Below are positions 3,439 to 23,152 of a stretch of DNA of 64,000 bases, one piece after another. Positions within the stretch are counted from its first letter, which is position 1. Each line of letters begins with the position of its first letter. Source of the stretch: an uncultured Planctomycetia bacterium (GTDB taxonomy: Bacteria; Omnitrophota; Gorgyraeia; Duberdicusellales; 4484-171). Location of the stretch: the NCBI GenBank assembly GCA_964629655.1, contig CAZVQU010000001.1, positions 612,056-676,055 on the forward strand, read 5' to 3'. The notes under the pieces were generated by a model. The model was not told the origin of the DNA. It ran no database searches and worked only from the letters and a program-made list of their open reading frames with translations. The position numbers and the translations under genes are program-made.

Positions 3439-3660
3439 ATGGAACATCCTAAAAGATCAGCGGTAAAGGCTTTAACCTGGCGGATTATAGCATTTCTGGT
3501 GACTATAATTGCCGTCTATATCTATAGCCGAGATGTTAAGGAAGCTCTTGTTATAGGAATAAGCGCTAACTTTGTAAAAATATTTTTATATTACATCCAT
3601 GAAAGAATTTGGAATAGAGTTAAATTTGGCAGGGTAAAGATTCCAGAGTATCAGATTTAA
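3439..3660 (+). CDS. DUF2061-family small membrane protein. The ORF track begins at 3346; the ATG at 3439 is the more likely start.
   Basis: KALTWRIIAF...YIHERIWN matches the DUF2061 core, and there are two hydrophobic helices. This family characteristically sits beside PAPS/APS reductase genes. Confidence 0.5.
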   Translation: MEHPKRSAVKALTWRIIAFLVTIIAVYIYSRDVKEALVIGISANFVKIFLYYIHERIWNRVKFGRVKIPEYQI

Positions 3661-3692
3661 AGTTTATTACACAAAGAAAGAGGAGGTTTGAG

Positions 3693-4403: not shown

Positions 4404-4417
4404 GCAGGGAGGGGGAG

Positions 4418-4891
4418 ATGGATTACCTTCCGATTGCAATAAACCTAAGGAATAAGCGAGTAATCGTGGTTGGCGGCGGAGGAGTTGCTCAGCGTAAGAT
4501 TAAGACTCTTCTGGATGCTAAGGCTTTAGTGGTTATCATCGCCCCAGAGGTAACCTCTAGAATCAGGTTGTTAATCAATAAAGGAACTATTAACTGGAAG
4601 AGCCGCAGAGTACAGGAGTCGGACATAAGAGAGGCTAAGCTGGTTGTCGCTGCTACTGATAGTGAAGAGGTCAACAAAGATATAAGCCGCTGGGCTAGGC
4701 AGTCTAAGATTTTAGTTAACGTTGCCGACAGACAACTAATCAGTGATTTTATTTCACCGGCTCTTTTGCAGCAGCATAAGGCACTTATTGCTGTGTATAC
4801 CGACGGTAGGGACCCGGTGCTCTCGAGAGATCTAAAGAATTATCTGAAGGAGAAGTGGGATGATTTTTTATTGTTTAGGAATAGATCATAA
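4418..4891 (+). CDS. sirC: Precorrin-2 dehydrogenase / sirohydrochlorin ferrochelatase (the siroheme synthase N-terminal-type domain). The track start at 4352 is probably too early.
   Basis: Rossmann motif VIVVGGGGVAQRK near the N-terminus, as in CysG-N and SirC. A GAGGGGGAG RBS sits before the ATG at 4418. Confidence 0.7.
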   Translation: MDYLPIAINLRNKRVIVVGGGGVAQRKIKTLLDAKALVVIIAPEVTSRIRLLINKGTINWKSRRVQESDIREAKLVVAATDSEEVNKDISRWARQSKILVNVADRQLISDFISPALLQQHKALIAVYTDGRDPVLSRDLKNYLKEKWDDFLLFRNRS

Positions 4892-5879
4892 AAGGACAAA
4901 ATTAGAGGTTCGAGAAGTAGTCTCGAGGAAGCGAGATTTAATAGCTCGTTTTTGGCAGAGTCTTAATCAAGCCTCGGCAGTACTGTTTACTTGTAATAGG
5001 GCTGAGTTGTACGGCGTTGCCCCAAACCCGTCCTCTATGGCTAGTGCTGTTAATGCCTTAAGAAGAGAATTCCCAATTCTTTTTAGAGATGCTTATTTAA
5101 GGCAGGGTAAGGAAAGAGTGATTAGGCATGCTTTGGAATTAGCTTCTGGTTTGCATTCGCAAATTCTAGGCGAGCCCCAGATACATCAACAGTTGAGTTC
5201 TTGGGTAAGGCAGAGTTCAGTTTCTCAAGTAATTAAAGATCTCTGGGTTAAGGTTTTGCCCTTGGCCCAGGATATAAGAGCCAAGTTAGGCTTAAGCGCA
5301 GAGGAGACCGACATTGCTGACATTGTCTTAGGTGATTTAGCTTATCATTGTTCGGCTAAACCAAAAGAAATTGTAGTGGTGGGTACCGGTAAGATTGCCG
5401 GGCTTATCGCTGAGGGGAGAATACCCGGGGTTAACTTATGCTTTGTTTCTCGGAAAAGGGAGAGTAAGGCAAAACAACTAGCCAAAGCCTCAGGCGGGAG
5501 AGCTATTTTGTTTGATGATTTGCTTGATGTCCTTACTTCTGCTGATAGCCTAATAAGTGCAACAACTAGCCCTCATTATATATTAGCAAGAGAAGAGCTT
5601 CTAAAAGTTGTTAAAAGGAGAGATAAACTTCTTTATATCTACGATTTGGCCGTGCCTAGAGATATTGAGCCTAAGATAAGAGATATTCAAGGAGTTTCAT
5701 TGCAAAACCTCGATGATTTGGATCTCCTTTTTAAAGAACATAAGAGAAAATTAAGGCATTGTGTCCGGCAAACAGAGCCCCTTATCGAAGAATCAATAAG
5801 AACTATTGAGGAGGAATTTTATGAATCTTCTTATCAGGGCCGGCACCAGGCCGAGCTCATTAGCCTTAAGGCAGGCTGA
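4860..5879 (+). CDS. hemA: Glutamyl-tRNA reductase. It is short: the usual C-terminal dimerisation region is reduced.
   Basis: N-terminal LGIDHKRTKLEVRE (the HemA catalytic motif) and a central NAD(P)-binding VVGTGKIAGL. Confidence 0.8.
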   Translation: MIFYCLGIDHKRTKLEVREVVSRKRDLIARFWQSLNQASAVLFTCNRAELYGVAPNPSSMASAVNALRREFPILFRDAYLRQGKERVIRHALELASGLHSQILGEPQIHQQLSSWVRQSSVSQVIKDLWVKVLPLAQDIRAKLGLSAEETDIADIVLGDLAYHCSAKPKEIVVVGTGKIAGLIAEGRIPGVNLCFVSRKRESKAKQLAKASGGRAILFDDLLDVLTSADSLISATTSPHYILAREELLKVVKRRDKLLYIYDLAVPRDIEPKIRDIQGVSLQNLDDLDLLFKEHKRKLRHCVRQTEPLIEESIRTIEEEFYESSYQGRHQAELISLKAG

Positions 5880-6474
5880 AGAGATTGAACAACGCTTTAA
5901 GGATATTAGCTTTGTTCGGGTTACGATTGAGACAAAAGGGGATAAAGATAAGATAACTTCCTTAACTTTAAGAGAGAATAGTAATTTCTTTACCGATGAG
6001 CTCGAAGAAGCTCTATTAAATAAGGAAATCGATATTGCTATACATAGTGCCAAAGATTTAGAAGAGGATATTCGGCCAGAGTTAATCATAGCGGCAACCA
6101 CTAAGTCGATAAATGAATTTGACTGTTTAGTCTCTCGGGGAAACTTCACCTTGGGTACGCTTCCGGTAAACTCAAAAGTTGGCACCAGTAGTATTAACAG
6201 GCGTAAGGGAATAATAAATTACCGTAACGATTTAATTTGCAAGGATATACGCGGCAACATTGAGGAAAGATTAGCCCAATTAGACCGGGGTGATTTTGAT
6301 GCCATTGTGGTTGCCCAGGCAGCTTTGATAAGATTAGGTTTAGAAGCTTTAAAGTTTCATATTATCCCTTTTGAGATTATTAGACCTCATCCTTTGCAAG
6401 GCCGGCTAGCAATACAGATTTTAAAAGAGAGAGAAGATTTAGCTAATATTTTTAAAGAGTTAGATGGTAAATAA
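5821..6474 (+). CDS. hemC: Porphobilinogen deaminase, domains 1-2 only; the cofactor-binding domain 3 is missing (see findings)
   Basis: IRAGTRPSSLALRQA matches the HemC N-terminus, and the end of domain 1/2 (PLQGRLAIQ) is recognisable. There is an RBS GAGGAGG before the ATG at 5821. The track start at 5806 lies inside hemA. Confidence 0.7.
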   Translation: MNLLIRAGTRPSSLALRQAEEIEQRFKDISFVRVTIETKGDKDKITSLTLRENSNFFTDELEEALLNKEIDIAIHSAKDLEEDIRPELIIAATTKSINEFDCLVSRGNFTLGTLPVNSKVGTSSINRRKGIINYRNDLICKDIRGNIEERLAQLDRGDFDAIVVAQAALIRLGLEALKFHIIPFEIIRPHPLQGRLAIQILKEREDLANIFKELDGK

Positions 6475-7219
6475 AAAAGGTAAAGTATATATAGTAGGGG
6501 CAGGTCCGGGGGACCCGGAATTAATCAGTTTGAAAGGATTAAAAGCTTTAATGCGTGCTGACTGTCTGCTTTATGACTTTCTCTCAGCCCCGGAGTTACT
6601 AGGAGAGGCTAAGTCTTCTTGTGAGAAGATCTGTGTTGGGAAGGCTGATCGATTGCATTTAAAAGAGCAAGACCAGATAAACAAATTGCTATACGAGAAG
6701 TCTCTTGTCTTTGAAAATGTAGTTCGCCTTAAGGGCGGAGATCCGTTCATTTTTAGCCGTGGACACGAAGAGGCAAGATATCTTATTGGTAAGGGTGTAG
6801 AAGTTGAAGTTATTCCCGGGATAACTTCAGCTATCGCCGCAGCCGAAAGCTTTGGCATACCTTTGACTATTAAGAATCGGATATCATCAGTAGCTATACT
6901 AACCGGCAGGAAGAAAGATCCTAAGGCCAAGATTGACGCTCCCTGTTGCGGTACACTTATCTATCTAATGGCTGTTGCTAATATAGCTAATGTTGTTAAA
7001 GCTTTACGCCGGAGTAAAAGAAGCGAGGATACTCCTTGTGCTTTTATAGAGAAAGCAAGCAGAAAGGACTCTCGAGCTGTTTTTGCAACTATTAAGACTA
7101 TAGAGAAAAAGGCTCATAAGTTTAATGTTCGACCGCCAGCAGTGCTAGTTGTCGGCGAAGTGGTAAAAAGGGGTAAGAGAATTCAAGATGAAGGCTCTAG
7201 AGGAAATAAGACTCAATAA
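6464..7219 (+). CDS. cobA: Uroporphyrinogen-III C-methyltransferase (SUMT)
   Basis: VYIVGAGPGDPELISLKGL SAM-binding motif and the tetrapyrrole methylase fold. There is no fused HemD domain. Confidence 0.85.
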   Translation: MVNKKGKVYIVGAGPGDPELISLKGLKALMRADCLLYDFLSAPELLGEAKSSCEKICVGKADRLHLKEQDQINKLLYEKSLVFENVVRLKGGDPFIFSRGHEEARYLIGKGVEVEVIPGITSAIAAAESFGIPLTIKNRISSVAILTGRKKDPKAKIDAPCCGTLIYLMAVANIANVVKALRRSKRSEDTPCAFIEKASRKDSRAVFATIKTIEKKAHKFNVRPPAVLVVGEVVKRGKRIQDEGSRGNKTQ

Positions 7220-8135
7220 GTGGAAGAGTATCTCAGTTAGGAAGCTGATTTACCCTTTGTTTGTAAGGGAGGGTAGAGGAGTGATTGAAGAAATTTCTTC
7301 TATGCCCGGGGTCTATAGATTTTCCCCAGATACTTTAATTAGTGAAGTAGCAAACCTTGAGAAACTAGGCCTTGAATATCTATTGATTTTTGGAATACCT
7401 GAGAATAAAGATTGGCAAGGAAGTTCTGCTCTCAAGAATAGTAATGTTGTCAGTGAGTCAGTACGATTAGTAAAGAAGTGTTTTCCTCAAATTAAAGTCA
7501 TTACTGATATATGCTTATGCGCGTATACTTCTCATGGGCATTGTGGAGTTATCAGAGATGGAGCCAGGGAGATAGATAGTCAGGCTACTCTAGGAGCTAT
7601 CTCTGAGATGGCTTTGTTACATGCTCAAGTCGGCGCAGATTACGTTGCTCCTTCTGCTATGGCTAATACTCAAGTGCAGGCCATAAGGAGAACTTTAGAT
7701 AGCCAAGGTTATCAATATACCAAAATTATGGGATATTCAGCTAAGTTTGCTTCTAATTTTTATGGTCCGTTCAGAGATGTTGCTGACTCAGCTCCTCGGT
7801 TTGGCAACCGGCATGGATACCAGCTTAATTATAGCGATAGCAAAGCTGCACTGTCTAAGGTTGAACAAGATATAAAGGAGGGGGCAGATATTGTTATGGT
7901 GAAGCCGGCTCTTGGATATTTGGATATAGTGAAGAAAGTTAAGAGTGAATTTAGCTATCCTTTGGCAGTTTACAATGTAAGCGGAGAGTATGCTATGGTT
8001 AAGGCTGGAGCTGGGGTCGGGTCTTGGGATGAAAAAGAGATGGTGTTTGAGATTATAAGTTCAATAAAACGGGCTGGTGCAGATTTTATTATTACCTACC
8101 ATGCAAAAGATATAGCGGGATGGTTGAGGAAATAG
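7188..8135 (+). CDS. hemB: Porphobilinogen synthase (ALA dehydratase), zinc type
   Basis: Cys-rich zinc site DICLCAYTSHGHCG and an active-site Lys region. Confidence 0.85.
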   Translation: MKALEEIRLNKWKSISVRKLIYPLFVREGRGVIEEISSMPGVYRFSPDTLISEVANLEKLGLEYLLIFGIPENKDWQGSSALKNSNVVSESVRLVKKCFPQIKVITDICLCAYTSHGHCGVIRDGAREIDSQATLGAISEMALLHAQVGADYVAPSAMANTQVQAIRRTLDSQGYQYTKIMGYSAKFASNFYGPFRDVADSAPRFGNRHGYQLNYSDSKAALSKVEQDIKEGADIVMVKPALGYLDIVKKVKSEFSYPLAVYNVSGEYAMVKAGAGVGSWDEKEMVFEIISSIKRAGADFIITYHAKDIAGWLRK

Positions 8136-8137
8136 GG

Positions 8138-9397
8138 ATGAAAAGAGATACAAAGAATAGAGCACTTTTTGACCGGGCTAAGGAACATCTAGTTGGTGGG
8201 GTAAATAGTCCGGTGCGTTCGTTTAACTATATTGGTGCAGAGCCAATATTAATTAAACAAGGCAAAGGCTCTAGAGTTTTCGACTATGACCGAAATAGTT
8301 ATATTGATTATGTTCTTTCGTTCGGGGCTTTATTCTTAGGCCATGCTCATAAAAGAGTTGTCAAAAGCATAAGGAGAAGAGCAAAAAAAGGCTTTGGATT
8401 TGGGGCTACGAGTTTTGAGGAGATAGAACTGGCAAGATTAATTAGTGAAGCGATTCCAGTTTTGGAGAAAATCCGTTTTGTTAATTCTGGGACTGAAAGT
8501 CTGATGAGTGCAATTCGTTTGGCAAGAGGTTATACCGGCAGAGAAAAAATAGTAAAATTTAACAATGCCTATCACGGACATGCTGATTACCTTTTAACTA
8601 AAGGTGGGTCAGGCTTAGCTACCTTAAATATATCTAGTAGTCAGGGTGTACCCGATGATTTTATAAAACATACAATTGTGTTAGATTGCGCCGATAAGGC
8701 TTTGATAAAGGAGACATTTCAAAAACATGCTCAAGATATAGCCGCAGTCGTTATAGAACCAATAGGCGGAAATTACGGGGTGGTTAGGCCTGATAAAGGT
8801 TTTCTTCAATATTTAAGAGAGATCACCCAAAGATATAAAGCCCTACTCATATTTGATGAGGTTATTACAGGTTTTAGATTTAGATTTGGCTCGGTAGCAG
8901 AAATTTTTGGGGTTTGTCCGGATTTAATTTGTTTGGGGAAGATTATTGGCGGAGGATTACCAATAGGTGCTTTTGGCGGCAAGAGAAACATTATGGATAA
9001 ACTCGCTCCCCTAGGAGAAGTCTACCAAGCATCAACCTTTGCTGGAAATCCGATTGTGATGAAAGCAGGATTTGCTACTCTGAGTGCATTGGCATCGCTT
9101 AAGGATAGGTATAGCTTAGTAGAGCAATTGGCCGGCGAACTCGTATATAGCTTTAAGCAAGTAGCTAAACACCACAATATTGATTTAACAATATCTAGTT
9201 ATCGGACAATGTTCAGCTTAAAGTTTAAACAAAAGAATAAATTCCGTTTGTTTTACAAGAGAATGCTTGAAGAAGGAGTCTATCTTGCTCCTTCGGAATT
9301 TGAGGCGAACTTTTTGTCTTTCGCACACACCAAGAGAGATGTCGAGGAGACAAAACAGGCGGCTAGGAGAGCCTTTAAGAGTATAAGTATATATTAG
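8138..9397 (+). CDS. hemL: Glutamate-1-semialdehyde 2,1-aminomutase
   Basis: LVGGVNSPVRSF N-terminal motif and a class-III aminotransferase fold. The ATG at 8138 is preferred over the track start at 8120. Confidence 0.85.
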   Translation: MKRDTKNRALFDRAKEHLVGGVNSPVRSFNYIGAEPILIKQGKGSRVFDYDRNSYIDYVLSFGALFLGHAHKRVVKSIRRRAKKGFGFGATSFEEIELARLISEAIPVLEKIRFVNSGTESLMSAIRLARGYTGREKIVKFNNAYHGHADYLLTKGGSGLATLNISSSQGVPDDFIKHTIVLDCADKALIKETFQKHAQDIAAVVIEPIGGNYGVVRPDKGFLQYLREITQRYKALLIFDEVITGFRFRFGSVAEIFGVCPDLICLGKIIGGGLPIGAFGGKRNIMDKLAPLGEVYQASTFAGNPIVMKAGFATLSALASLKDRYSLVEQLAGELVYSFKQVAKHHNIDLTISSYRTMFSLKFKQKNKFRLFYKRMLEEGVYLAPSEFEANFLSFAHTKRDVEETKQAARRAFKSISIY

Positions 9398-9415
9398 GTA
9401 AAGAGAGAGGATGAG

Positions 9416-10132
9416 ATGAGTGAGAAAAATATTGACTATGGTGGTTTAAAGAAACGAGGGTTTTTAAGAGAAAGACAAGAAGGCTTCTTTACTCTGAGAA
9501 CACGTGGGCCTTCAGGAAATTATAGCCAGAAGCACTTAGCAGGCTTAGCTAAAATTTCAGAGGACTATGCTCGAGGGTTTGTCCATCTTACGGTTCGTCA
9601 AGGAATCGAGATTCCTTTTATAAAGTTTGAACATATATTAAAAGTTGAGAAAGAAGTAAACCGGCTCGGTGTTAAGTTCGGGACTTCCGGGCTGCGTTTG
9701 AGAGCTACTACTGCCTGTCCGGGCAGCAATTGGTGCAAAAGTGGTCTTGTTGATACCTTTTTTCTTTTTAACCGGATAGAAGAAAAGGGAATCAGTTGTG
9801 GTTTAGAATTGCCGCATAAATTTAAAATTGTTATTTCCGGGTGCCCCAATACTTGTACAAGGGTTCAAGCCTCTGAGATAGGAATTCATGGAGCAGTGGA
9901 TGCAGAGAGTCCGGATAAAAGAATTGGCTATTGTCTATATTTAGGTGGGTGTGGCGGAAAGACTCCGCGTATCGGATTTAAGCTAAGTAAAATTTTTACT
10001 GAAGATGAGGTTCTATCCGTGATTGAGAGGGTAGTTATTTTCTATAAAGAAAATGCTAAGCCACGCCAACGCTTTGCTTTGTTGATTGAGGAGATCGGTA
10101 AGGATAATTTCTTAAAGCAAATAGGCTTTTAA
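9416..10132 (+). CDS. Small siroheme-dependent sulfite/nitrite reductase hemoprotein (low-molecular-weight assimilatory type)
   Basis: Nitrite/sulfite reductase ferredoxin-like half-domain with the siroheme-[4Fe-4S] cysteine motifs TACPGSNWC and SGCPNTC. The RBS is AGAGAGG. Confidence 0.65.
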   Translation: MSEKNIDYGGLKKRGFLRERQEGFFTLRTRGPSGNYSQKHLAGLAKISEDYARGFVHLTVRQGIEIPFIKFEHILKVEKEVNRLGVKFGTSGLRLRATTACPGSNWCKSGLVDTFFLFNRIEEKGISCGLELPHKFKIVISGCPNTCTRVQASEIGIHGAVDAESPDKRIGYCLYLGGCGGKTPRIGFKLSKIFTEDEVLSVIERVVIFYKENAKPRQRFALLIEEIGKDNFLKQIGF

Positions 10133-10160
10133 GACTAAAAAGAATAGATATTATTGCTTC

Positions 10161-10188
10161 TTGACAATTTTTTACTTAGTAATACAAT
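10161..10188 (+). promoter_or_regulatory. Sigma70-like promoter upstream of the Rrf2 regulator gene
   Basis: TTGACA 10161-10166, a 16-nt spacer, TACAAT 10183-10188. Confidence 0.45.
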
Positions 10189-10217
10189 TTGAATACTAAG
10201 ACTATTTAATTAATTGG

Positions 10218-10229
10218 ATTACTAGTAAT
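10218..10229. promoter_or_regulatory. Perfect 12-bp palindrome in the 5' leader of the Rrf2 gene (candidate autoregulatory operator)
   Basis: ATTACTAGTAAT is self-complementary. It is flanked by AATT and lies between the predicted -10 and the RBS GGGAGGAG. Confidence 0.35.
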
Positions 10230-10241
10230 TGGGAGGAGATT

Positions 10242-10682
10242 ATGAAAATTTCAACACGTACCAGATATGGAACAAGATTAATGCTAAGTCTAGCTTTAAA
10301 TTACGGTAAAGGACCATTTTTGTTGAAAGATGTTGCTGAGGGAGAACAGATCTCAGAAAAATATTTAAGCCAGATAATTATACCTTTAAAAGCTAAAGGG
10401 TTGGTGAATTCTTTTCGCGGTGCTCACGGAGGATATACTTTGGCAAAGGTGCCTTCTCAAATAAGTATCAAAGAAATAGTTGAAGCCTTAGAAGGAGGGC
10501 TTAATCTCGTAGGACGGGTCAAAGACGCTTCTTCTTGCAGCCAGGTCTCGATACGGGTTACTCACAATATTTGGAATGAGTTAAGTGAGAAAATGGCTAA
10601 GACGCTTGGTTCAATAACCTTAGATGATTTAGTGAAGGAGTCTAAGGCAAAAGGCAATAGGGTTTTAATGTACAACATCTAA
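10242..10682 (+). CDS. Rrf2-family transcriptional regulator (CymR/IscR-like)
   Basis: N-terminal wHTH TRYGTRLMLSLA...GPFLLKDVAE...ISEKYLSQII and the GGYTLAK motif. It has only two Cys, so it is probably not a cluster-binding IscR. Confidence 0.8.
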   Translation: MKISTRTRYGTRLMLSLALNYGKGPFLLKDVAEGEQISEKYLSQIIIPLKAKGLVNSFRGAHGGYTLAKVPSQISIKEIVEALEGGLNLVGRVKDASSCSQVSIRVTHNIWNELSEKMAKTLGSITLDDLVKESKAKGNRVLMYNI

Positions 10683-10693
10683 TAGGCCATAGC

Positions 10694-10711
10694 TTGTTAA
10701 ATAGTTAACAA
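10694..10711. promoter_or_regulatory. Inverted repeat TTGTTAA-ATAG-TTAACAA immediately upstream of the ThiI-like gene start
   Basis: 7-bp arms with a 4-nt spacer, ending 5 nt before the ATG at 10716. It could be an operator or an RBS-occluding hairpin. Confidence 0.3.
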
Positions 10712-10715
10712 TATA

Positions 10716-11705
10716 ATGAAAGCAATTGCCTTATTCTCCGGTGGACTGGATAGTACCTTAGCGATAAAGACCATTACTGAACAAGGGGTAGATGTTATAG
10801 CCTTGAATTTCTTTACTCCCTTCTGTCGTTGCGAGAGGTCAAAAGGCTGTGGGTCATTAATCAAGGATATGGCTAAGGAGCTTGGCGTAAAGATAAAAAT
10901 GGTTTGTTTAGGCCAGGATTATTTAGATATGATAAAAGACCCCGAACATGGATATGGTAAAAATATCAATCCCTGTATTGATTGTAGAATATTTAAGTTT
11001 AGACGAGCTAAAGGGGTTATGAAAGAAGAAGGGGCATCTTTTGTTATTACCGGGGAGGTCTTAGGACAAAGGCCGATGTCTCAGCATCGCCAGGCTTTGC
11101 GAACAATTGAAACCAAGGCCGGTCTAGAAGGGTTGGTTTTAAGACCTTTGTCGGCAAAGCTTTTTGCTCCTACTATAGCTGAAGAGCAAGGATGGGTAAG
11201 GAGAGAGGATTTACTGGAGATAAGTGGCAGGACTCGGAAGCCTCAGATTCGGTTAGCTTCTCATTGGGGGATAAAGAATTATCCTTGTCCAGCTGGAGGC
11301 TGTCTCTTAACAGATCATCATTTTTGCCAAAGACTAAAGGATCTTCTTAAACACGAAGAAATTAATATTAATAATACCGAGCTTTTAAAACTTGGCAGGC
11401 ATTTTCGCCTGAATCCTAAATTCAAACTAATTGTAGGCAGAGACGAAAAGGAAAACCAGAAGATTTTAAACTTAGCTCAAGAAGGAGATTTTTGCTTTGA
11501 ACCTAAAGATTTGCCAGGACCAACAGGAATCGGCAGGGGCCAACTTGATGAATCTGTAAAGATATTGTCTTCTCGGATAATAGCCCGTTACACTTCTCAA
11601 GAAGAAAAAGTAGATGTATTAGTCAGAACTATTCCCCAGAACCGGGGAGAAACCCTTTCTGTGAAGGCTATCGGCCAAGAGAAGATTAGAGAATACATAA
11701 TCTAA
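10716..11705 (+). CDS. ThiI-like PP-loop ATP pyrophosphatase / sulfurtransferase that lacks a THUMP domain and carries a Cys cluster
   Basis: [11 protein letters not shown]-loop in the first 15 residues. [14 protein letters not shown] and LRPL match the ThiI adenylation domain. Extra cysteines (CRCERSKGC and PCIDC) suggest a sulfide-dependent enzyme with an [Fe-S] cluster. Confidence 0.6.
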
Positions 11706-11730
11706 GCATACAGTGAAAAAGGAGGATAAA

Positions 11731-12642
11731 ATGAACATTGCCGAAAATATCACTCAACTAGTAGGGAATACTCCTTTGGTGAAGCTAGGCAAGCTCAGTG
11801 CCGGGATTGATGCTACCTTAGTAGTCAAACTAGAGTCTTTTAACCCTTGTTCAAGCGTTAAAGACAGAATTGGGTTGGCGATGATAGAAGATGCTGAGAG
11901 GAAGGGAAAGATTAACAAAGATACCGTTATTGTTGAACCGACTAGCGGCAATACCGGGATTGCTTTGGCTTTTGTCTGTGCTCAAAGAGGATATCGATTG
12001 GTTTTAACTATGCCCGAGAGCATGTCTTTGGAGAGAAGAAAACTACTATCCTGGTTTGGTGCCGAGCTAGTTTTGACACCGGCTGAGGGAGGGATGAAAG
12101 GTGCGATTGAAGAGGCCGAGGAGCTTCTTAAAAAGTATCCTAATGCTTTTATGCCCCAACAATTTAAGAACCCGGCTAATCCTAAAATACACCAAGAGGT
12201 TACAGCTGAAGAGATTTGGCGCGATACTAATGGGGAAATTGATATTTTAATCTCCGGTGTTGGTACCGGAGGAACAATTACCGGCGTAGCGGAGGCTCTT
12301 AAGAAAAAGAAGCCTGAGTTTGAAGCAATCGCTTTAGAGCCAGCAAAATCTCCTATTCTCTCTGGCGGTAAACCCGGTTCACACAAGATCCAAGGCATTG
12401 GCGCAGGTTTTGTTCCTGAGGTATTAAGGAGAGATTTAATAGATGAGATAATTTGCATAGAGGATGAAGATGCAATCTCTATGGCTGATCGGATTGCAAA
12501 AGAGGAAGGAATCCTGGTAGGGAATTCTAGCGGAGCAGCAGTCTGGGCCGGTTTAGAAATTGCTAGGCGTCCAGAAAATAAAGGTAAACTTATTGTAGTA
12601 ATCTTACCAGATACAGGGGAGAGATACTTATCTACTTGGTAG
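11731..12642 (+). CDS. cysK: Cysteine synthase (O-acetylserine or O-phosphoserine sulfhydrylase, PLP-dependent). The track start at 11713 is a GTG; the ATG at 11731 follows AAAAGGAGG.
   Basis: [10 protein letters not shown], the SVKDRIG PLP-lysine motif, and the GTGGT glycine loop. Confidence 0.8.
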
Positions 12643-12671
12643 TAAGTAACCCTGTAATATCAAGGAGGTGA

Positions 12672-13889
12672 ATGATGTCTAAGACAATAGCTGAGATTAA
12701 TGAAAAGATTAAGAAAGGGCAGGTGGTTGTTGTCACTGCTGAGGAGATGATAGGAATCGTTAAAGAAAAAGGAGCTAAAGCTGCGGCCGAAGAAGTGGAT
12801 GTAGTAACTACAGCTACCTTTGGCCCAATGTGTTCTTCAGGTGCCTATCTCAACATCGGGCATGCTAAGCCTAAGATAAAGCTAGGTGGGGGAAAGACTA
12901 CCCTAAATAAAATTGATACATATGCGGGTTTTGCTGCAGTTGATCTTTACATTGGAGCAACTGCCCTAGCTGACGATGATCCCAGGAATAAAGTTTTTCC
13001 GGGAAAATTCAAGTATGGCGGTGGGCATGTAATTGAAGATTTAGCAGCCGGGAAAGATATTGTTTTAGAGGGTGCTGCTTATGGGACAGATTGCTATCCA
13101 GGTAAAGAGCTTAAGACACTGATTAACATAAAAGACATCAACGAAGCAGTGCTTTTCAATCCTAGGAATCTGTATCAAAATTACAATATTGCTGTTAACT
13201 TATCTGACAAGACCATTTATACCTATATGGGAACCTTAAGACCAAAGGTAGGCAATGCAAACTATTGTAGTGCTGGACAACTTTCCCCATTTCTTAATGA
13301 CCCTCTTTACAGAACTATTGGTATTGGTACCAAGATATTCTTAGGCGGAGGCATTGGTTATGTTTCTTGGTGGGGAACTCAACATAATCCTGGAGTTAAG
13401 AGAGCTGACAATAAGACTCCTCTTACGCCAGCAGGAACAGCTGCTGTTATTGGTGACTTAAAACAGATGAGCGATAAGTGGCTTAAGGGGGTTAGTTTCT
13501 TAGGGTATGGAGTAACTCTTAGTGTGGGAATTGGTGTACCTATTCCGATACTCGATGAAGAAATGGCTCAGTTTACTGCTGTATCTGATGATCAACTCTC
13601 TGCGAGCATAGTCGATTATAGTAAAGCTTACCCTCAAGGAATTCCTGAATCTTTAGGAAGAGCTACTTATGCGGAACTTAAAACTGGGAAAATAACTGTA
13701 AGAGGAAGAGAAGTTCCTACCGGGGCAATATCAAGCTATCCTAAGGCAAGAGAGATAGCTGATGAACTTAAAACCTGGATTAAGAAAGGCGACTTTCTTT
13801 TGACTGAGCCAGTGGCTGAATTTCCCGGCCCGGATTCGGGATACAAATTTAAACCTTTAAAGGTCAGAGAAGTAAAAGGAGGTAAGTAG
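12672..13889 (+). CDS. COG1900/DUF39-family protein (the methanogen MA1821-type enzyme for sulfide-dependent homocysteine formation)
   Basis: About 400 aa with the characteristic Gly-rich blocks (KLGGGKTTLN, KYGGGHVIEDL, FLGGGIGYVSWWG). The RBS is AAGGAGG. Confidence 0.6.
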   Translation: MMSKTIAEINEKIKKGQVVVVTAEEMIGIVKEKGAKAAAEEVDVVTTATFGPMCSSGAYLNIGHAKPKIKLGGGKTTLNKIDTYAGFAAVDLYIGATALADDDPRNKVFPGKFKYGGGHVIEDLAAGKDIVLEGAAYGTDCYPGKELKTLINIKDINEAVLFNPRNLYQNYNIAVNLSDKTIYTYMGTLRPKVGNANYCSAGQLSPFLNDPLYRTIGIGTKIFLGGGIGYVSWWGTQHNPGVKRADNKTPLTPAGTAAVIGDLKQMSDKWLKGVSFLGYGVTLSVGIGVPIPILDEEMAQFTAVSDDQLSASIVDYSKAYPQGIPESLGRATYAELKTGKITVRGREVPTGAISSYPKAREIADELKTWIKKGDFLLTEPVAEFPGPDSGYKFKPLKVREVKGGK

Positions 13890-13891
13890 TT

Positions 13892-14299
13892 ATGTACTCC
13901 AAAAAAATAGTTCTACACTTTCCTTCCGATCTTGTTAACAAGTCGATAATTTATAGATTATCAAAAGACTTTGATTTAGAGTTCAATATTCTCAAAGCTC
14001 TTGTTAATCCTGACGAGGAAGGATTGATGGTCCTTGAGCTAAAGGGTGAGAAAGATGAGTATACCAGAGCAGTAAAATACCTAGAAAAAGAGAAGGTTAG
14101 AATTCAGACCTTATCTAAAGATGTAATTCGCGATGAAGATAAGTGTGTTGATTGCGGATTATGTGTCGCTGTCTGTCCGGTAGAGGCCTTTGAAGTAGAT
14201 TCTGATTCAAGAAAGATAGAATTCCACGACGATAAGTGTATTGCTTGTGAGATGTGCGTGAAAGTTTGTCCTTACAAGGCTATGGAGGTAAACTTCTAA
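13892..14299 (+). CDS. NIL-domain ferredoxin with 2x[4Fe-4S] (the MA1822-type partner of COG1900)
   Basis: N-terminal NIL-like domain (about 75 aa), then CVDCGLCVAVCP and CIACEMCVKVCP. The start is 3 nt after the previous stop. Confidence 0.6.
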   Translation: MYSKKIVLHFPSDLVNKSIIYRLSKDFDLEFNILKALVNPDEEGLMVLELKGEKDEYTRAVKYLEKEKVRIQTLSKDVIRDEDKCVDCGLCVAVCPVEAFEVDSDSRKIEFHDDKCIACEMCVKVCPYKAMEVNF

Positions 14300-14308
14300 G
14301 CGAAATTT

Positions 14309-14581
14309 ATGGCAGTAATAAGAATACCTTTGTTATTTCAAGAGGCAGTAGGTGGAGCTACCCAATTAGAGGTTAAGGCAGATAATATTAGCGAGTTGAT
14401 TGGTAACTTAACTAATGAATTTCCTGATCTCAAAGAGAAATTCTATGATACCCAAGGGAGTTTAAGTAAGTTTATCAACATCTATGTTAATGGGGAAGAT
14501 TCCCGGTTTTTAGAAGGCGAGAAAACTCACCTCAATGATAGAGATATCATAGATATTATTCTTCCTATTGCCGGAGGGTAG
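14309..14581 (+). CDS. ThiS/MoaD/CysO-family sulfur-carrier protein ending in Gly-Gly
   Basis: 90 aa with a beta-grasp-like composition. The C-terminal ...LPIAGG stop is the hallmark diglycine for adenylation and thiocarboxylation. Confidence 0.6.
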   Translation: MAVIRIPLLFQEAVGGATQLEVKADNISELIGNLTNEFPDLKEKFYDTQGSLSKFINIYVNGEDSRFLEGEKTHLNDRDIIDIILPIAGG

Positions 14582-14596
14582 GAAAGATTAATTAAG

Positions 14597-15379
14597 ATGG
14601 CACTTAGTCAAGAACAACTCACCAGATACCGGCGAAATATAACCATTCCGGCCATAGGCAGCAAGGGTCAAGAAAAGCTTCTTAACTCGAAGGTGTTAAT
14701 TATTGGTACCGGTGGCCTAGGCTCATCTTGTGCCTATTATTTAGCCGCTGCCGGCATTGGAAAGATTGGCCTAGTTGATTTTGATTTGGTAGAATTAGAT
14801 AACTTGCAGAGGCAAATTCTTCATGCAACCAGAGATATTGGAAAGTCGAAGGTTATATCCGCCAAAGATAAGCTTAACAATCTCAATCCCGAGATAGAGA
14901 TTACTCCCCATAAAGTTAAGTTATCTTCTGAGAATATATTAGATATTGTTAAAGACTATTTGTTATTAGTAGAGTGCTCAGATAACTTTTTAACAAAATA
15001 TCTATTAAATGATACCGCTATTCTTACTAAAAAACCATTGTTCTATGCAGCAGTGTTAAGATTTGAGGGTCAAGCTATGACTATTCTTCCCAGGCAGACT
15101 GCCTGTTATCGCTGTCTATTCCCTAAACCACCCTCCGAAAACGAATTCATCTCACCCAAAGATGCCGGGATTCTAGGAGCTGTTGCTGGGACGATAGGGT
15201 TGGTCCAGGCCAACGAAGTCTTAAAATACATTCTAAATATAGGAGAATTATTGACCAATAAGCTCTTAACTTTTGATTCTCTTGCTACAACTTTTAAGAA
15301 AATAAAAGTTCAGCCTAATCCGAGTTGTCCGGTATGCGGCCAAAATCCTACAATAAGAGAGATTACCGGCAGTAAATAA
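14597..15379 (+). CDS. ThiF/MoeB/HesA-family E1-like adenylyltransferase with a zinc CxxC...CxxC motif and no rhodanese domain
   Basis: LIIGTGGLGSSCAYYLAAAGIGKIGLVDFD nucleotide-binding motif, plus ACYRC and SCPVC. Confidence 0.8.
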   Translation: MALSQEQLTRYRRNITIPAIGSKGQEKLLNSKVLIIGTGGLGSSCAYYLAAAGIGKIGLVDFDLVELDNLQRQILHATRDIGKSKVISAKDKLNNLNPEIEITPHKVKLSSENILDIVKDYLLLVECSDNFLTKYLLNDTAILTKKPLFYAAVLRFEGQAMTILPRQTACYRCLFPKPPSENEFISPKDAGILGAVAGTIGLVQANEVLKYILNIGELLTNKLLTFDSLATTFKKIKVQPNPSCPVCGQNPTIREITGSK

Positions 15380-15486
15380 CTCTTCCTGAATGATCAAATA
15401 CAAGGATTGTAAATATATTTAAATCTGGTAGAATATCGCTTGCGTTAGATAGGTAAAGTTAGATAAATTCAAAGTAAGGGGGAGAT

Positions 15487-16272
15487 ATGACCAAGAAGAT
15501 TTTTAGTAGTGTAGGAGAAAAAGAAGTTACCCGGGCAATTGTCGATGAATTTTCAAAGCAGTTCTCAGAGTATACTGAGAGTGATGTAATTATTATTGGT
15601 GCTGGCCCCAGTGGACTTATGGCTGGTAAAGAATTAGCGCTCGCAGGGCTTAAAGTGCTTATTGTCGAGAGAAATAATTACCTTGGCGGCGGTTTCTGGA
15701 TTGGCGGTTATCTTATGAATAAACTTACCGTAAGGGCACCGGCTGAAGAAATTCTAAAAGAGCTGGGAGTTCCTTACAAAGAAACTAATCCCGGGCTTTT
15801 TGTTGCTGATGGCCCCCATGCTTGCTCTAAGCTTATTGCTGCTGCTTGTGATGCCGGGGTTAAAATAGCTAATATGACTGTCTTTGAAGATATTGTCTTA
15901 AGAGAGAAAAATCGTGTAGCTGGCGCAGTAATTAACTGGACTCCGGTTCAAGCCTTACCGCGGCAAATTACCTGCGTTGATCCGGTAGCTATAGAGGGAA
16001 AGATTGTGATTGATGCTACCGGCCATGATGCGATGGTTTGCCAGAAGATGGAAGAAAGAGACCTGCTTAAAACTAGAGGCTATGGAGCAATGTGGGTTGA
16101 GCGCTCTGAGGATTTATTGGTTGAGCATACCGGCGAAGTATCTCCTGGCCTCATAGTCATTGGTATGGCGGTATCGACTATGTATGGGCTTCCTCGAATG
16201 GGCCCTACTTTCGGCGGAATGCTTCTTTCCGGTAAAAGAGGCGCTGAAGTTGTAAAAGAAAAATTAAAGTAG
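15487..16272 (+). CDS. thi4: Thi4-family thiazole synthase. By eye it is the non-suicide, sulfide-dependent type: the yeast catalytic Cys position reads Thr in ...IDATGHDA....
   Basis: FAD-binding [10 protein letters not shown] and the conserved VAGAVINWT...CVDP...IDATGHDA block. The RBS is AAGGGGGAG. Confidence 0.75.
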
Positions 16273-16284
16273 TCTAAGAATAAA

Positions 16285-17103
16285 ATGTCTAGGCGAAGTC
16301 ATCCCGCCAGGGGTACCATTTCTTCTATTTATCTTTATGGGAGTAGTGGCCTGCCAGAGTATAAAGCAGAAGAAATCACCGACTACCTAAAAAACATATA
16401 TCCTAAAGCAAAAACAGAGCAGAGAGGAGATTTCTTCTCCTTCTTGCTTAAAAGTCCGGACTCTCCTGATATTGAGGAGCTTGCCAGAAAAATTACCTGC
16501 TCCCGGGTTCATAGCGTTAGTGAGCAGCTGAAAGAGTTTTCACCCCTTCCCTTAGAGATTGAATATGAGAAAAAAAGGCTTTTGGGGAATAAACAACTAA
16601 AGGGTGTAATCTACGATGGTTTTCATTTACAAAAAATCTGCAGAGAGCTTCTTGGCTTAAAGGAATTTAAACCTTCATCCTGCCATATAATATTTACCAA
16701 CCAGCTATTAGCTAGTTTCGATAGCAATGATCGGCGCTATCATGTCAGAGTCGGTATCTATGGCCGGCCTAATATCATCTCTGTTCCGGGATTAGTAGAA
16801 GCTTTAGCTAAGCCTAAGGAGTACTACATAAAGATGCAGATGGGTGAGGATACCTTGACCTTAAGTCAGGAATTTAAAGGAGAGATTATCGAGTATGAAG
16901 ATACCCGGATTACAGAATTATTAAAAGGTTATTGCCTTCAAGCCCTTTTCTATCACTTGACCGGAGATCCTTTTTGCTCCGATAAAAAATGCCGCCTTTA
17001 TAATGCTCATTGGCAAAAGGAAGCAATCGAAGCCCAGATAGAGGCTGAGTATGAATTTTGCCTCAAGCATGCTGAGATTACTTCACAGTGGAAAAATAGA
17101 TAA
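16285..17103 (+). CDS. Hypothetical protein with conserved Cys/His (possible metal site). It weakly resembles archaemetzincin-type CX4C motifs.
   Basis: 272 aa, no TM segments. Cys/His-containing motifs are CHIIF, H(V)RVGIYGRP and FYHLTGDPFCSDKKCRLYNAHW. It sits between thi4 and the csoR promoter. Confidence 0.35.
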   Translation: MSRRSHPARGTISSIYLYGSSGLPEYKAEEITDYLKNIYPKAKTEQRGDFFSFLLKSPDSPDIEELARKITCSRVHSVSEQLKEFSPLPLEIEYEKKRLLGNKQLKGVIYDGFHLQKICRELLGLKEFKPSSCHIIFTNQLLASFDSNDRRYHVRVGIYGRPNIISVPGLVEALAKPKEYYIKMQMGEDTLTLSQEFKGEIIEYEDTRITELLKGYCLQALFYHLTGDPFCSDKKCRLYNAHWQKEAIEAQIEAEYEFCLKHAEITSQWKNR

Positions 17104-17145
17104 TAAATACAAGGTATTTCTAAGACGGAAAAGATTACTTTTATC

Positions 17146-17176
17146 TTGACATACCCTAGGGGGGTATGGTATAAAT
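17146..17176 (+). promoter_or_regulatory. Promoter with an embedded CsoR-type operator (GC-rich inverted repeat ATACCC-TAGG-GGGGTAT)
   Basis: TTGACA 17146-17151 overlaps ATACCCTAGGGGGGTATGG, and TATAAAT at 17170-17176 is the -10. The repeat arms ATACCC and GGGTAT are reverse complements. It lies 58 nt upstream of csoR. Confidence 0.55.
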
Positions 17177-17233
17177 GGTTTAGGGATAATAGAGATATAA
17201 CAAGGGTATTGGTTTTAAAATACGAGGTGATAA

Positions 17234-17515
17234 ATGGCGCATAAAACAACTCATAGTGAAAATTTGATTGCTCTGCGAAGAATTGAGGGCCAGATTAAAG
17301 GTATCCAGAAAATGGTTGAAGAAAAGAAATATTGTATAGATATCGTCAATCAGGTTCATGCTTCAATAAGTGCTCTTCGCCGAGTAGCTGAGAAAATTCT
17401 CTCTAAACATATGGAACATTGCGTAGTAGATGCCATAAAGGGGAAATCAGAGTCGCAAAGAAAAGAAAAGATAGATGAGGTAATGAGTGTAATAAGAAAA
17501 ATACATAAGATATGA
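17234..17515 (+). CDS. csoR: CsoR/RcnR/FrmR-family metal-sensing transcriptional repressor
   Basis: 93 aa, all-helical. Conserved Cys (KYCIDI) and the H-x-x-x-C pair (HMEHC) sit at CsoR Cu(I)-ligand positions. The RBS is GAGGTG. Confidence 0.75.
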   Translation: MAHKTTHSENLIALRRIEGQIKGIQKMVEEKKYCIDIVNQVHASISALRRVAEKILSKHMEHCVVDAIKGKSESQRKEKIDEVMSVIRKIHKI

Positions 17516-18528
17516 GAGTAGCTAAAACAATTTTTATCTTGACCTTTATTTTAAGCCTAACAGTTCTACATAACGAAATAAAAGCAGGCTCTCTTTACAA
17601 GGAAATAAATATTATTGGTGGTTATTCCGATCTCAACAAATCGGTTGGTAAGGATAATAGGTCATTAAAGAATTCAATTGGCTTTGAGTATTATGATAAG
17701 TTTTCTGACCAATACGGAGATTATTTAACTGCCGATCTTCAAGTGAGATTAGCTTATGATTCTTTAAAGAATTCCAATGATGCCTGGGCTCTTGAGGTTC
17801 ACAATGCTTTTCTAGATTACAAATTAGGCTTAGGTAAGGCTTTACGTGTAGGGCATTTTGATCCCTCATTTGGGCTTGAACCGGTTCTGGATACGCACGG
17901 TACTTTATTCCAGACCTTAGCTCGCAAGAACATTGGTTTTAAAAAAGATTGGGGCACTGGCATAAGAGGTATTCTTGGTGAGTTTGACTATGAACTTTCT
18001 GCTCAAATTGGCTCGGGGATGGGTATTGAGAGAAAAGACGGAAGTTTTTTGCTCAGTAGCAGGCTCGGGACAGCCCAGGATAGAGATTTTCAATACGGGA
18101 TATCTTTGCTCTATGGTGAAGTGCTTGCCAGTAACGAAACAAAGACTATTCCGGCCCCGGAGCTTATCTCAAACCAGGCTATTCTTAAGAAGAGGATAGG
18201 TTTAGATGGCCAATATTCATCCGGCCCTTATCTACTAAAGGGAGAGTTAGTTTATGGCCAGGATTCCAACGATGATATTCTGGGATCGCTCCTTGAGGTT
18301 GATTACGTTCCTCGGTCTATTCAAGAGTTAGAATTTAAACTGCAAGGTCAGTTTTTCTCAAAAGATTTAGGAAATTCTAATCTTCAAGATATAATTGTTG
18401 GCGCTGGATTGGGCTACAAGCTTAATTCTGACCTTACTCTACGGTTAGCTTATTTTCATGATTTTCGCTCATCAAGCGTAGATAAGGATAGGCAGGTGCT
18501 TTTGCAAGTATACTATTATGGGCTTTAA
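17512..18528 (+). CDS. Putative outer-membrane beta-barrel protein (porin-like)
   Basis: Signal peptide, alternating amphipathic beta-strand pattern with many Y/G/D/N, and a C-terminal aromatic end ...VYYYGL. It overlaps the csoR stop by 4 nt. Confidence 0.45.
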   Translation: MRVAKTIFILTFILSLTVLHNEIKAGSLYKEINIIGGYSDLNKSVGKDNRSLKNSIGFEYYDKFSDQYGDYLTADLQVRLAYDSLKNSNDAWALEVHNAFLDYKLGLGKALRVGHFDPSFGLEPVLDTHGTLFQTLARKNIGFKKDWGTGIRGILGEFDYELSAQIGSGMGIERKDGSFLLSSRLGTAQDRDFQYGISLLYGEVLASNETKTIPAPELISNQAILKKRIGLDGQYSSGPYLLKGELVYGQDSNDDILGSLLEVDYVPRSIQELEFKLQGQFFSKDLGNSNLQDIIVGAGLGYKLNSDLTLRLAYFHDFRSSSVDKDRQVLLQVYYYGL

Positions 18529-18529
18529 G

Positions 18530-19213
18530 ATGAGAAAATTTATTTTAAGTTTAATGCTGTGTTTTTTATCAACTTTTGCTTACTCTGATGATGCGTCTGC
18601 AGCAGTTGGCTGTACCTTAAACGACCCGGATCGTGATGTAATCCGTATTTTCCCAGAATCTACCGGTTATCGAACTGATTTTATAAGCATAAAGGAGAAG
18701 GGTGGGGAGATTTTAGCAGAAGAAATAGAAAAGAAGCTCGGCGATAAACTAGATTCTGCTTATGAGTCTTTAGATGTGCCTTATTCTTACTATACCATTC
18801 TTAAAGGCATGGAGGTCATTGGCTACATTCATGGTGTTAACCAGAAAGGAACTTTTGGAGGAATACAGATTATCTTAGCCAGTGATTTAGAGGGTAAGAT
18901 AATAAATCTTTATTATCAGAAGATATCTTCTCCTGAGGCCAGTAAATTTAGAAACAAAAGATTTGTTGACCAGTTCACAGGACTAACACTGGCAGATTTC
19001 TATCGTCATGATGCTTTAGGGGGTAACGAATATTCTTATGACAAAATAGCAGAAATCAAAGATCCAAGCGAAAACAGCAATCAAGATTTTAAAGCCACCT
19101 TAAGAGGCATAAAGAAGAATTTAATCTTACTTGATGAGTTTATATTAAATAGTAAGTATGATCAGGATTATAACAAGATTAATAAAGGAGGTAATAATGA
19201 GAGTGATGATTAG
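18530..19213 (+). CDS. Secreted protein with an FMN-binding-like domain (similar to the NosR/RnfG/NqrC periplasmic domain). The flavinylation motif is not evident.
   Basis: Signal peptide MRKFILSLMLCFLSTFAYS. The core GVNQKGTFGGIQIILASDLEGKIINLYY...FVDQFTG fits an FMN_bind domain. The track start at 18518 precedes the porin stop. Confidence 0.4.
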   Translation: MRKFILSLMLCFLSTFAYSDDASAAVGCTLNDPDRDVIRIFPESTGYRTDFISIKEKGGEILAEEIEKKLGDKLDSAYESLDVPYSYYTILKGMEVIGYIHGVNQKGTFGGIQIILASDLEGKIINLYYQKISSPEASKFRNKRFVDQFTGLTLADFYRHDALGGNEYSYDKIAEIKDPSENSNQDFKATLRGIKKNLILLDEFILNSKYDQDYNKINKGGNNESDD

Positions 19214-19568
19214 CATTTCAGTATGTCTATTGATTATTTTCACCGGAGCATTAATAAGTGGGTGTGGCCGCTTAGAAGAGTATGGAGAAAGAATCTCCAA
19301 TCAAGAAATCACAAAAATTAGTGATATTCTCAAGAAACCAAAGAGTTATGACCAGAAAACACTTATTATTGAGGGCAAGATCATGGTTGAATGTCCTGCT
19401 GGCTGTTGGTTTACTTTAAGAGATGACTCAGGAGTTATCTATGTTGACCTTGGGCCTTCAGGGTTTGCCATAGCTCAGCATACAGGAGATGAGGTTTTAG
19501 TCGTTGGAGAGATTGTAGATAAGAAACCAAATCCAATAATGATCGGAAAAGGGGTGAAGATAAAATGA
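19197..19568 (+). CDS. Small lipoprotein, OB-fold-like, with a CxxGC motif
   Basis: AGGAGG RBS, then an ATG at 19197. There is a lipobox LISGC. The motif ECPAGCWF is followed by beta-rich sequence. The track start at 19158 is upstream of the RBS. Confidence 0.45.
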   Translation: MRVMISISVCLLIIFTGALISGCGRLEEYGERISNQEITKISDILKKPKSYDQKTLIIEGKIMVECPAGCWFTLRDDSGVIYVDLGPSGFAIAQHTGDEVLVVGEIVDKKPNPIMIGKGVKIK

Positions 19569-23113: not shown

Positions 23114-23152
23114 AATTCCTAGCTCGGGAAGGTTGAGTTTTAAGGAGATTTA

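Follow-up and report, generated by a model that had tools for sequence, protein, structure and literature searches.

We analysed a 64-kb stretch of DNA (contig CAZVQU010000001.1; hereafter the window) from an uncultured Candidatus Omnitrophota bacterium, in which two adjacent genes on the + strand encode a protein of the homocysteine biosynthesis family HcyBio (12672-13889) and a NIL-ferredoxin protein (13892-14299). We consider it highly probable that these two proteins are the subunits of an L-aspartate semialdehyde sulfurtransferase acting in the COG1900a homocysteine route. The 405-aa product of the first gene matches PF01837 (HcyBio, alias COG1900 or DUF39, with the Pfam title 'Homocysteine biosynthesis enzyme, sulfur-incorporation') from end to end of the model (residues 18-377 on model positions 1-349 of 349; E 2.6e-147; 490.7 bits, cut-off 26.2), in agreement with an original prediction that had assigned it to COG1900/DUF39 from its glycine-rich blocks. 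The blocks KYGGGHVIEDL and IFLGGGIGYVSWWGTQHNP contain the columns G117 and G226, which are unvaried across all aligned subfamilies, and three cysteines, Cys54 (PMCSSG), Cys141 (GTDCYP) and Cys199, are unvaried in an alignment with 13 close bacterial orthologues. No CBS domain was matched by Pfam in this protein. Its ribosome-binding site AAGGAGGT (12662-12669) places GGAGG 3 nt from the first ATG (12672) and 6 nt from the second (12675); 12675 may be the true start, which would have the better spacing and give a protein of 404 aa, the length of nearly all homologues.

The second gene encodes a protein of 135 aa that combines a NIL domain (PF09383, residues 6-71, E 2.9e-15) with a 4Fe-4S dicluster domain (Fer4_7, residues 84-130, E 3.6e-16), and its sequence contains the eponymous FNIL signature. 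Two CxxCxxCxxxCP motifs at residues 85-95 and 115-125 (C85-x2-C88-x2-C91-x3-C95-P and C115-x2-C118-x2-C121-x3-C125-P) provide for two [4Fe-4S] clusters, so that the NIL-like domain with two cluster motifs that had been read from the sequence is borne out in full. Pfam assignment, which the original prediction had named as a check on both proteins, placed each of them in the family expected, and given the E-values their family membership is not due to chance. The spacing of the two genes had been put at 3 nt and is in fact 2 nt, the TAG stop of the HcyBio gene ending at 13889 and the ATG of the NIL-ferredoxin gene lying at 13892. Since the gap is only 2 nt and the GGAGG ribosome-binding site of the second gene lies inside the 3' end of the first, the two genes are probably translationally coupled.

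Among the COG1900 subfamilies, the homocysteine enzyme belongs to COG1900a (MA1821) and the coenzyme-M synthase MMP16 to COG1900d, and COG1900a proteins have two nearly universal cysteines, which in MA1821 are Cys54, essential in vivo, and Cys131 (PMC12068725). Searched for homologues at E ≤0.001, a set of 1.84 billion cluster representatives yielded 989, of which 150 were listed, many of them shorter than 300 aa. The best full-length non-bacterial representative listed, P0122 (504 aa), has the HcyBio+CBS architecture described for MA1821 and MJ0100 and is 51% identical to the window HcyBio across the whole COG1900 domain (about 51-54% for the HcyBio+CBS type), while the other full-length representatives are 33-50% identical, two of them with a fused ferredoxin domain. 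The gene that comes next on the P0122 contig overlaps the P0122 gene by 4 nt and encodes a NIL-ferredoxin of 134 aa, which shares 28% identity with the window NIL-ferredoxin over the full length (E 7e-23). Cys54 and Cys141 of the window protein align with two P0122 cysteines that lie 77 residues apart, which is the spacing of Cys54 and Cys131 in MA1821; between them the window HcyBio, unlike the CBS-fused type, has an insertion of 10 residues relative to P0122 (the DDDPRNKVFPGK region), ahead of the GGGHVIEDL block. Cys199, unvaried in the close bacterial orthologues, is not kept in the CBS-fused type. Against the MMP16 model TIGR03287 the window protein scores 102.6 bits, far under the cut-off of 363.95. 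Because both subfamily cysteines are kept, the identity to the CBS-fused type reaches 51% and the MMP16 score stays under its cut-off, the placement of the window protein in the homocysteine subfamily COG1900a appears supported.

These comparisons also bear on whether the pair might act on another aldehyde and form a thiol other than homocysteine, as MMP16 converts sulfoacetaldehyde to coenzyme M. COG1900 paralogues do perform analogous chemistry on other aldehydes, the homocysteine enzyme may partly replace MMP16 (PMC12068725), and neither a methionine gene nor an S-adenosylmethionine (SAM) riboswitch lies near the pair. The low score on the MMP16 model, the presence of both COG1900a-specific cysteines and a partner with a separate NIL domain, as in MA1822, nevertheless argue for homocysteine, as does the 65-83% identity to bacterial orthologues that include Dehalococcoides and delta-proteobacterial lineages with an inferred or proven methionine role. 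No coenzyme M biosynthesis genes were found in the window by Pfam scan, and with this evidence combined we regard a different aldehyde substrate as highly improbable.

The closest public proteins to the window HcyBio are 79-93% identical to it, and those that carry a name come from metagenome-assembled genomes (MAGs) of Candidatus Omnitrophota/Omnitrophica; orthologues from this phylum are named 'homocysteine biosynthesis protein' at NCBI and 'L-aspartate semialdehyde sulfurtransferase' at JGI. Among species-representative genomes the best locus is that of an Omnitrophota MAG (L001, 83% identity). An identical protein is recorded solely on a 4.8-kb contig assembled from run SRR24302411, where it has the same neighbours. 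More distant relatives include delta-proteobacterial MAG proteins (about 67-73% identity) and a protein of Dehalococcoides mccartyi (locus L060, 68%). A sequence search of the PDB with the HcyBio protein yielded nothing beyond antibody chains matched by chance (E 0.004-0.007), with no COG1900-domain relative among the solved structures, and an AlphaFold2 model built from a 13-sequence alignment, all members at least 71% identical, was unusable (average pLDDT 36.9, pTM 0.32).

The gene order in the window, a COG1900a gene followed by a gene for a NIL-ferredoxin of ~135 aa, is common to MA1821/MA1822 of Methanosarcina acetivorans (also MJ0100), to which a homocysteine route in Methanosarcina has been ascribed (PMC12068725). 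Both subfamily cysteines and a partner with a NIL domain and two [4Fe-4S] motifs are shared as well, the comparison having been run through the metagenomic P0122 pair of the same architecture (51% and 28% identity). Families, cysteines, gene order and the literature on the pathway all agree with the earlier proposal that the pair is a methanogen-type homocysteine enzyme in the MA1821/MA1822 arrangement. The window HcyBio differs in lacking the C-terminal CBS pair, a feature that marks the methanogen form and not the family. SAM sensing has been described for the CBS-bearing methanogen enzyme (PMC12068725, PMC4045070); as the catalytic subunit in the window has no CBS domain, direct SAM sensing would be absent here.

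A bacterial COG1900 gene paired with a NIL-ferredoxin gene is already known, genetically established and routinely annotated, and the pair in the window is an ordinary case of it. Genetic studies in Desulfovibrio (2014, 2018) established the bacterial pathway (PMC4045070, PMC5764234): mutants in DUF39 or in NIL/ferredoxin are auxotrophic for methionine, and the route does not pass through homoserine (PMC5764234, PMC4045070). Judged by the published descriptions, this Desulfovibrio DUF39 pathway (Dde_3007; DvMF_1464 for DUF39, DvMF_0262 for NIL/ferredoxin and DvMF_0044 for COG2122) and the window have in common a bacterial COG1900 protein without CBS domains, as reported for Dde_3007 (PMC4045070), and a NIL/ferredoxin partner. 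The three D. vulgaris genes have locus tags far apart, whereas in the window the first two genes are adjacent, and the COG2122/UPF0280 protein, a third component required in D. vulgaris (PMC5764234), is without a counterpart there. For Dehalococcoides, DET0921-DET0919 have been indicated as the pathway, and DET0921 has been described as orthologous to Dde_3007, for which there is genetic proof (PMC4045070).

According to Pfam and NCBIfam scans, the pair is embedded in a co-oriented, uninterrupted series of genes of ~13.4 kb (3693-17103, all + strand) that leads from sulfite formation to sulfur-containing products. At its upstream end, Pfam identified a reductase of adenosine phosphosulfate or phosphoadenosine phosphosulfate (APS/PAPS; 3693-4403), a siroheme synthase N-terminal domain (4352-4891) and HemA, HemC, uroporphyrinogen methyltransferase, HemB and HemL (4860-9397), followed by a small siroheme-type sulfite reductase of 238 aa (9416-10132; PF01077 E 9.6e-30, PF03460 E 1.8e-15). 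We infer that the genes at 3693-9397 supply sulfite and the siroheme cofactor, and the sulfite reductase is likely the source of sulfide for CysK and the pair. Within the tetrapyrrole genes, the HemA open reading frame (ORF; 4860-5879, +) encodes 339 aa, only the N-terminal porphobilinogen deaminase domain was matched in the HemC ORF (5806-6474, +; 222 aa), which is also short (206 aa) in the related Omnitrophota locus L082, and the scan of the cluster's ORFs revealed no uroporphyrinogen-III synthase (HemD) domain.

Between the sulfite reductase and the pair lie three further genes, for an Rrf2-family regulator (10242-10682; PF02082 E 3.3e-36), a PP-loop ATPase with a ThiI/MnmA-like N-terminal part fused to a C-terminal NFACT-R_2 RNA-binding domain (10716-11705; PF18297 E 1.5e-22, PF02568 E 6.4e-11), and CysK of the O-acetylserine sulfhydrylase A type (11713-12642; TIGR01139, 464.1 bits against a cut-off of 350.95), which ends 29 nt upstream of HcyBio. 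The CysK ORF passes the cysK/cysKM models only, the cysM models remaining under their cut-offs. The best specific match of the Rrf2 protein is to CymR, a regulator of cysteine metabolism (123.9 bits, under the cut-off of 195), and the best NCBIfam matches of the PP-loop/NFACT-R protein are far under their cut-offs; the latter is probably an RNA-thiolation enzyme and as such would be a co-transcribed consumer of sulfur.

Gaps from the Rrf2 gene through ThiF measure 2-33 nt, compared with 107-109 nt ahead of the Rrf2 gene and of Thi4, and the Rrf2 gene is probably both the first gene and the regulator of the operon. In the 109-nt gap ahead of it, a sigma-70-like match (TTGACA-16 nt-TACAAT, 11/12 positions; 10161-10188, +) is a candidate operon promoter by consensus alone; sigma-70-like matches across the region are fewer than expected from shuffled sequence (21 observed, 33.8 expected), so that only its position is suggestive. 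A search upstream of the Rrf2 gene for an inverted-repeat operator found none. The terminator scan was at chance level (14 matches, 12.4 expected), with matches inside coding regions, and is therefore uninformative on operon boundaries. Across the entire window Rfam gave no match at the gathering threshold, and at E ≤1 it gave no credible one in 3000-17700; neither scan revealed a SAM or thiamine pyrophosphate riboswitch.

Directly downstream of the pair follow genes for a ThiS/MoaD/SAMP-like sulfur carrier of 90 aa that ends in AGG before the stop (14309-14581, +; PF02597 E 1e-10), a ThiF/MoeB-type adenylyltransferase of 260 aa (14597-15379, +; PF00899 E 9.9e-77), a Cys-type ('suicide', ITC-VDP) Thi4 thiazole synthase (15487-16272, +; PF01946 E 2.8e-71) and a DUF6775 protein (16285-17103, +; PF20565 E 1.7e-79). 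The ThiS-like gene begins 9 nt past the NIL-ferredoxin gene and ThiF 15 nt past ThiS. Gene clusters of this kind are known from work on Thi4: Cys-type Thi4 genes cluster with DUF6775, ThiF, ThiS, CysK, CysI, ThiI and, less often, HcyBio, and DUF6775 is reported to lack a classical HEXXH metal site (preprint 10.1101/2025.09.23.678117). The block in the window, with its Cys-type Thi4, is exactly the Thi4-ThiS-ThiF-DUF6775 module of that preprint, which is centred on Thi4 and does not address the working of the HcyBio pair, whereas here the pair, and not Thi4, is the constant element of the neighbourhood. The setting of the pair in a sulfur cluster is expected and has partly been described already from the Thi4 side.

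The carrier genes could be read as serving the pair itself. Examples of thiocarboxylate routes to sulfur amino acids are HcyS/HcyF/MetY/HcyD in Wolinella and CysO/CysM/MoeZ/Mec in Mycobacterium. The window resembles them in having a Gly-Gly ThiS-like carrier and a ThiF-like enzyme beside a sulfite reductase and a sulfhydrylase dependent on pyridoxal phosphate; it departs from them in that the sulfhydrylase is of the CysK type and not CysM or MetY, that the Pfam scan found neither MetY nor a JAMM protease domain in the window, and that the carrier genes vary among close relatives while the HcyBio/NIL-ferredoxin pair stays. A thiocarboxylate methionine pathway is also mentioned in the Desulfovibrio work (PMC5764234). 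Applied to the Omnitrophota lineage, this model would have the pair draw its sulfur from the ThiS-like thiocarboxylate, activated by the ThiF-like enzyme, and not from free sulfide. It is favoured by the tight, terminator-free spacing of NIL-ferredoxin, ThiS and ThiF on one strand, by the Gly-Gly right before the ThiS stop, ready for adenylation, and by the sulfur donor of the class being stated as unresolved (PMC12068725). In a weaker form, one carrier could serve several clients in the operon, namely the Cys-type Thi4, the PP-loop/NFACT-R enzyme and the homocysteine enzyme.

The neighbourhood of the pair was compared in 80 genome loci with 65-83% identity to the window HcyBio, the most similar of at least 590 matches, in which genes were stop-to-stop ORFs searched with the window proteins at score thresholds that we set. 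MAG labels of these loci, several of them submitters' labels, include Omnitrophota, Planctomycetota, delta-proteobacteria, Dehalococcoidia and Spirochaetota, and further Elusimicrobia, Saganbacteria, Sumerlaeota, Aerophobetes and Actinomycetota. Counted over loci with sufficient flank (for NIL-ferredoxin, at least 1 kb downstream), 56 of 70 loci have a NIL-ferredoxin gene directly downstream of HcyBio, 37 of 64 have cysK directly upstream and 27 of 56 have an Rrf2 gene upstream; the last arrangement is also seen in loci L082, L086, L087 and L088. A PP-loop/NFACT-R gene lies within 5 kb of HcyBio in nine of the 38 fully flanked loci and ThiF in only two. ThiF was used here as a proxy for the carrier genes, ThiS counts being underestimates, as a single-sequence phmmer search with the 90-aa ThiS, not sensitive enough for so short and divergent a protein, detected L060 only.

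Among the closest relatives, the Omnitrophota locus L082 (84% identity) has the whole supercluster in the same order, including the APS/PAPS reductase-siroheme genes, the sulfite reductase and the ThiS-ThiF-Thi4-DUF6775 block. The block is absent from L001 (83%), L086 (83%) and L088 (79%; with a truncated NIL ORF), and in L087 (81%) ThiS-ThiF lie upstream of the Rrf2 gene. In view of the locus counts and of this comparison, the constant unit is Rrf2-(variable genes)-CysK-HcyBio-NIL-ferredoxin, and the carrier genes are variable passengers. ThiS and ThiF were also considered as members of the homocysteine system proper, which was rejected as the main reading in view of how variably close relatives carry the block.

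These patterns bear on the case for a thiocarboxylate donor. The identical order in L082 and the position of ThiF directly after NIL-ferredoxin in L043 and L074, or after a 330-nt gap in L014, speak for it. The scarcity of ThiF near HcyBio in the fully flanked loci speaks against it, as do the absence of the block from L001 and L086 and its displacement in L087. In L074, moreover, ThiF is followed by cysteine desulfurase-like and FdhD-like ORFs, identified by eye, which suggests a different client, and in M. acetivorans the proposed back-up role of the enzyme in coenzyme M synthesis was seen only with exogenous sulfide (PMC12068725). The block in the window travels with a Cys-type Thi4 and DUF6775, and a Candidatus Omnitrophica Thi4 is reported to complement an E. 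coli thiG mutant better with the host ThiF and ThiS (preprint 10.1101/2025.09.23.678117). Because the preprint links ThiF/ThiS to Omnitrophica Thi4, the carrier genes have a client other than the homocysteine enzyme, which agrees with their variable occurrence; ThiS-ThiF probably belong with Thi4 and DUF6775 and not with the HcyBio pair, for which they are probably not the sulfur donor. We consequently judge a thiocarboxylate donor improbable. If true, it would answer the question of the sulfur species for the class and make the system a hybrid of the COG1900 and thiocarboxylate routes.

Several features of the related loci stand apart from this question. A Thi4 gene is present anywhere in the locus in 26 of the 80, and by the residue before VDP these genes split cleanly into nine of the Cys-type and 17 of the His-type. 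The 17 His-type (catalytic, sulfide-dependent) genes near HcyBio (e.g. L006 6270-7049, L003, L009, L024, L035 and L063) mostly lie directly upstream of it, several loci having the gene between cysK and HcyBio. With both types counted, a thiazole synthase is thus a frequent neighbour of the pair (26/80 loci). A COG2122/UPF0280 gene, matching PRK04334 above its cut-off, directly follows NIL-ferredoxin in 18 of the 80 loci, and this three-gene unit is mostly found in Dehalococcoidia (e.g. L060 12225-12977, L008, L019 and L020). In L088, a complete Omnitrophota genome (CP070807.1), HcyBio is followed by a 49-aa NIL-only ORF (6218-6364), a fragment that may stem from a frameshift, from misassembly or from decay of the ferredoxin partner. 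In the delta-proteobacterial MAG locus L074 (4008-6758), the series NIL-ferredoxin, ThiF, cysteine desulfurase-like ORF and FdhD-like ORF, the last two again recognised by eye, comes without a Thi4 gene and makes a further sulfur-relay set beside the pair.

The absence of canonical homocysteine genes nearby had been cited in favour of the alternative route. A Pfam scan of ORFs of at least 110 aa found no metA, metX, metY, metB or metC in the whole 64 kb, so that the observation itself stands and extends across the window; as an argument for the alternative route it is consistent, and over a scope of 64 kb it is weak evidence about the genome. The pair could accordingly be one of two homocysteine routes, with canonical MetX/MetY or MetA/MetB encoded elsewhere in the genome, a situation that is compatible with the function proposed here and that we see as possible, if on the unlikely side. 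In M. acetivorans, deletion of the enzyme has no methionine phenotype, since a second pathway exists (PMC12068725), and the view of the genome here is one of 64 kb. On the other side are the missing canonical genes, which speak for these 64 kb only, and the role of the DUF39 route as the main one in Desulfovibrio (PMC4045070, PMC5764234), which says nothing on the rest of this genome.

Some points weigh against the assignment of the pair as an L-aspartate semialdehyde sulfurtransferase. The function of the Omnitrophota pair is read from sequence and from the literature on orthologues, the sulfur species used by the COG1900a class is an open question (PMC12068725), and the absence of canonical homocysteine genes covers the 64-kb window only. 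The same Pfam scan found no asd, metE or metH in the window, and a phmmer search with E up to 10 found no homologue of COG2122/UPF0280 there. The COG2122 gene may sit elsewhere in the genome, by analogy with D. vulgaris, where its locus tag is likewise distant.

With the families, conserved residues, operon layout and neighbourhood conservation described above as its basis, a scheme can be proposed for substrate, sulfur species, electron donor and regulation. APS/PAPS reductase would generate sulfite, derived from sulfate, which the small siroheme sulfite reductase would reduce to sulfide, the siroheme genes lying between the two. Sulfide would then enter two parallel, co-transcribed sinks, cysteine synthesis by CysK and homocysteine synthesis by the HcyBio/NIL-ferredoxin pair, the latter converting L-aspartate-4-semialdehyde to L-homocysteine and bypassing homoserine. 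From the literature on orthologues (PMC12068725, PMC5764234), Cys54 of the COG1900 subunit would take up the sulfur, probably in persulfide form, and pass it on to the aldehyde carbon; the two [4Fe-4S] clusters of the small subunit would then deliver the electrons that reduce the intermediate. Feedback control may come from methionine bound by the NIL domain. Regulation would probably be transcriptional, through the Rrf2 (CymR-like) protein.

An Omnitrophota bacterium would thus carry an anaerobe-type, homoserine-independent homocysteine route within one sulfur-assimilation cluster, alongside cysteine synthesis. Searching the literature for how Omnitrophota make methionine or homocysteine, we found nothing relevant. 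The assignment is of value for the metabolic reconstruction of this uncultured phylum and has little significance beyond correct annotation; automated tools have wrongly predicted methionine auxotrophy where the pathway was unrecognised (PMC5764234). The compact operon of Rrf2, CysK, HcyBio, NIL-ferredoxin, ThiS and ThiF would also make a handy construct for approaching the sulfur-species question in vitro.

The remainder of the window encodes a biotin operon, Fur/FeoB, two GH65 phosphorylases, PEPCK, ETF, SMC, QueA, EF-G and PurH. The biotin operon (22139-29873, +) looks complete, with BirA, BioB, BioF, an alpha/beta hydrolase, a BioC-like methyltransferase, BioD and BioA; in L086 it directly follows NIL-ferredoxin, which indicates that much variable DNA has been inserted downstream of the pair in the window. 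ORFs of 376, 338, 231, 136, 747 and 397 aa (841-1971, 17512-19568 and 52739-56172, +) had no Pfam match at E 1e-6 to 1e-8. The window has a G+C content of ~39%; every 2-kb block shows positive GC skew, and ORFs of at least 110 aa lie on the + strand with few exceptions, as would fit a single replichore whose genes are very strongly co-oriented.

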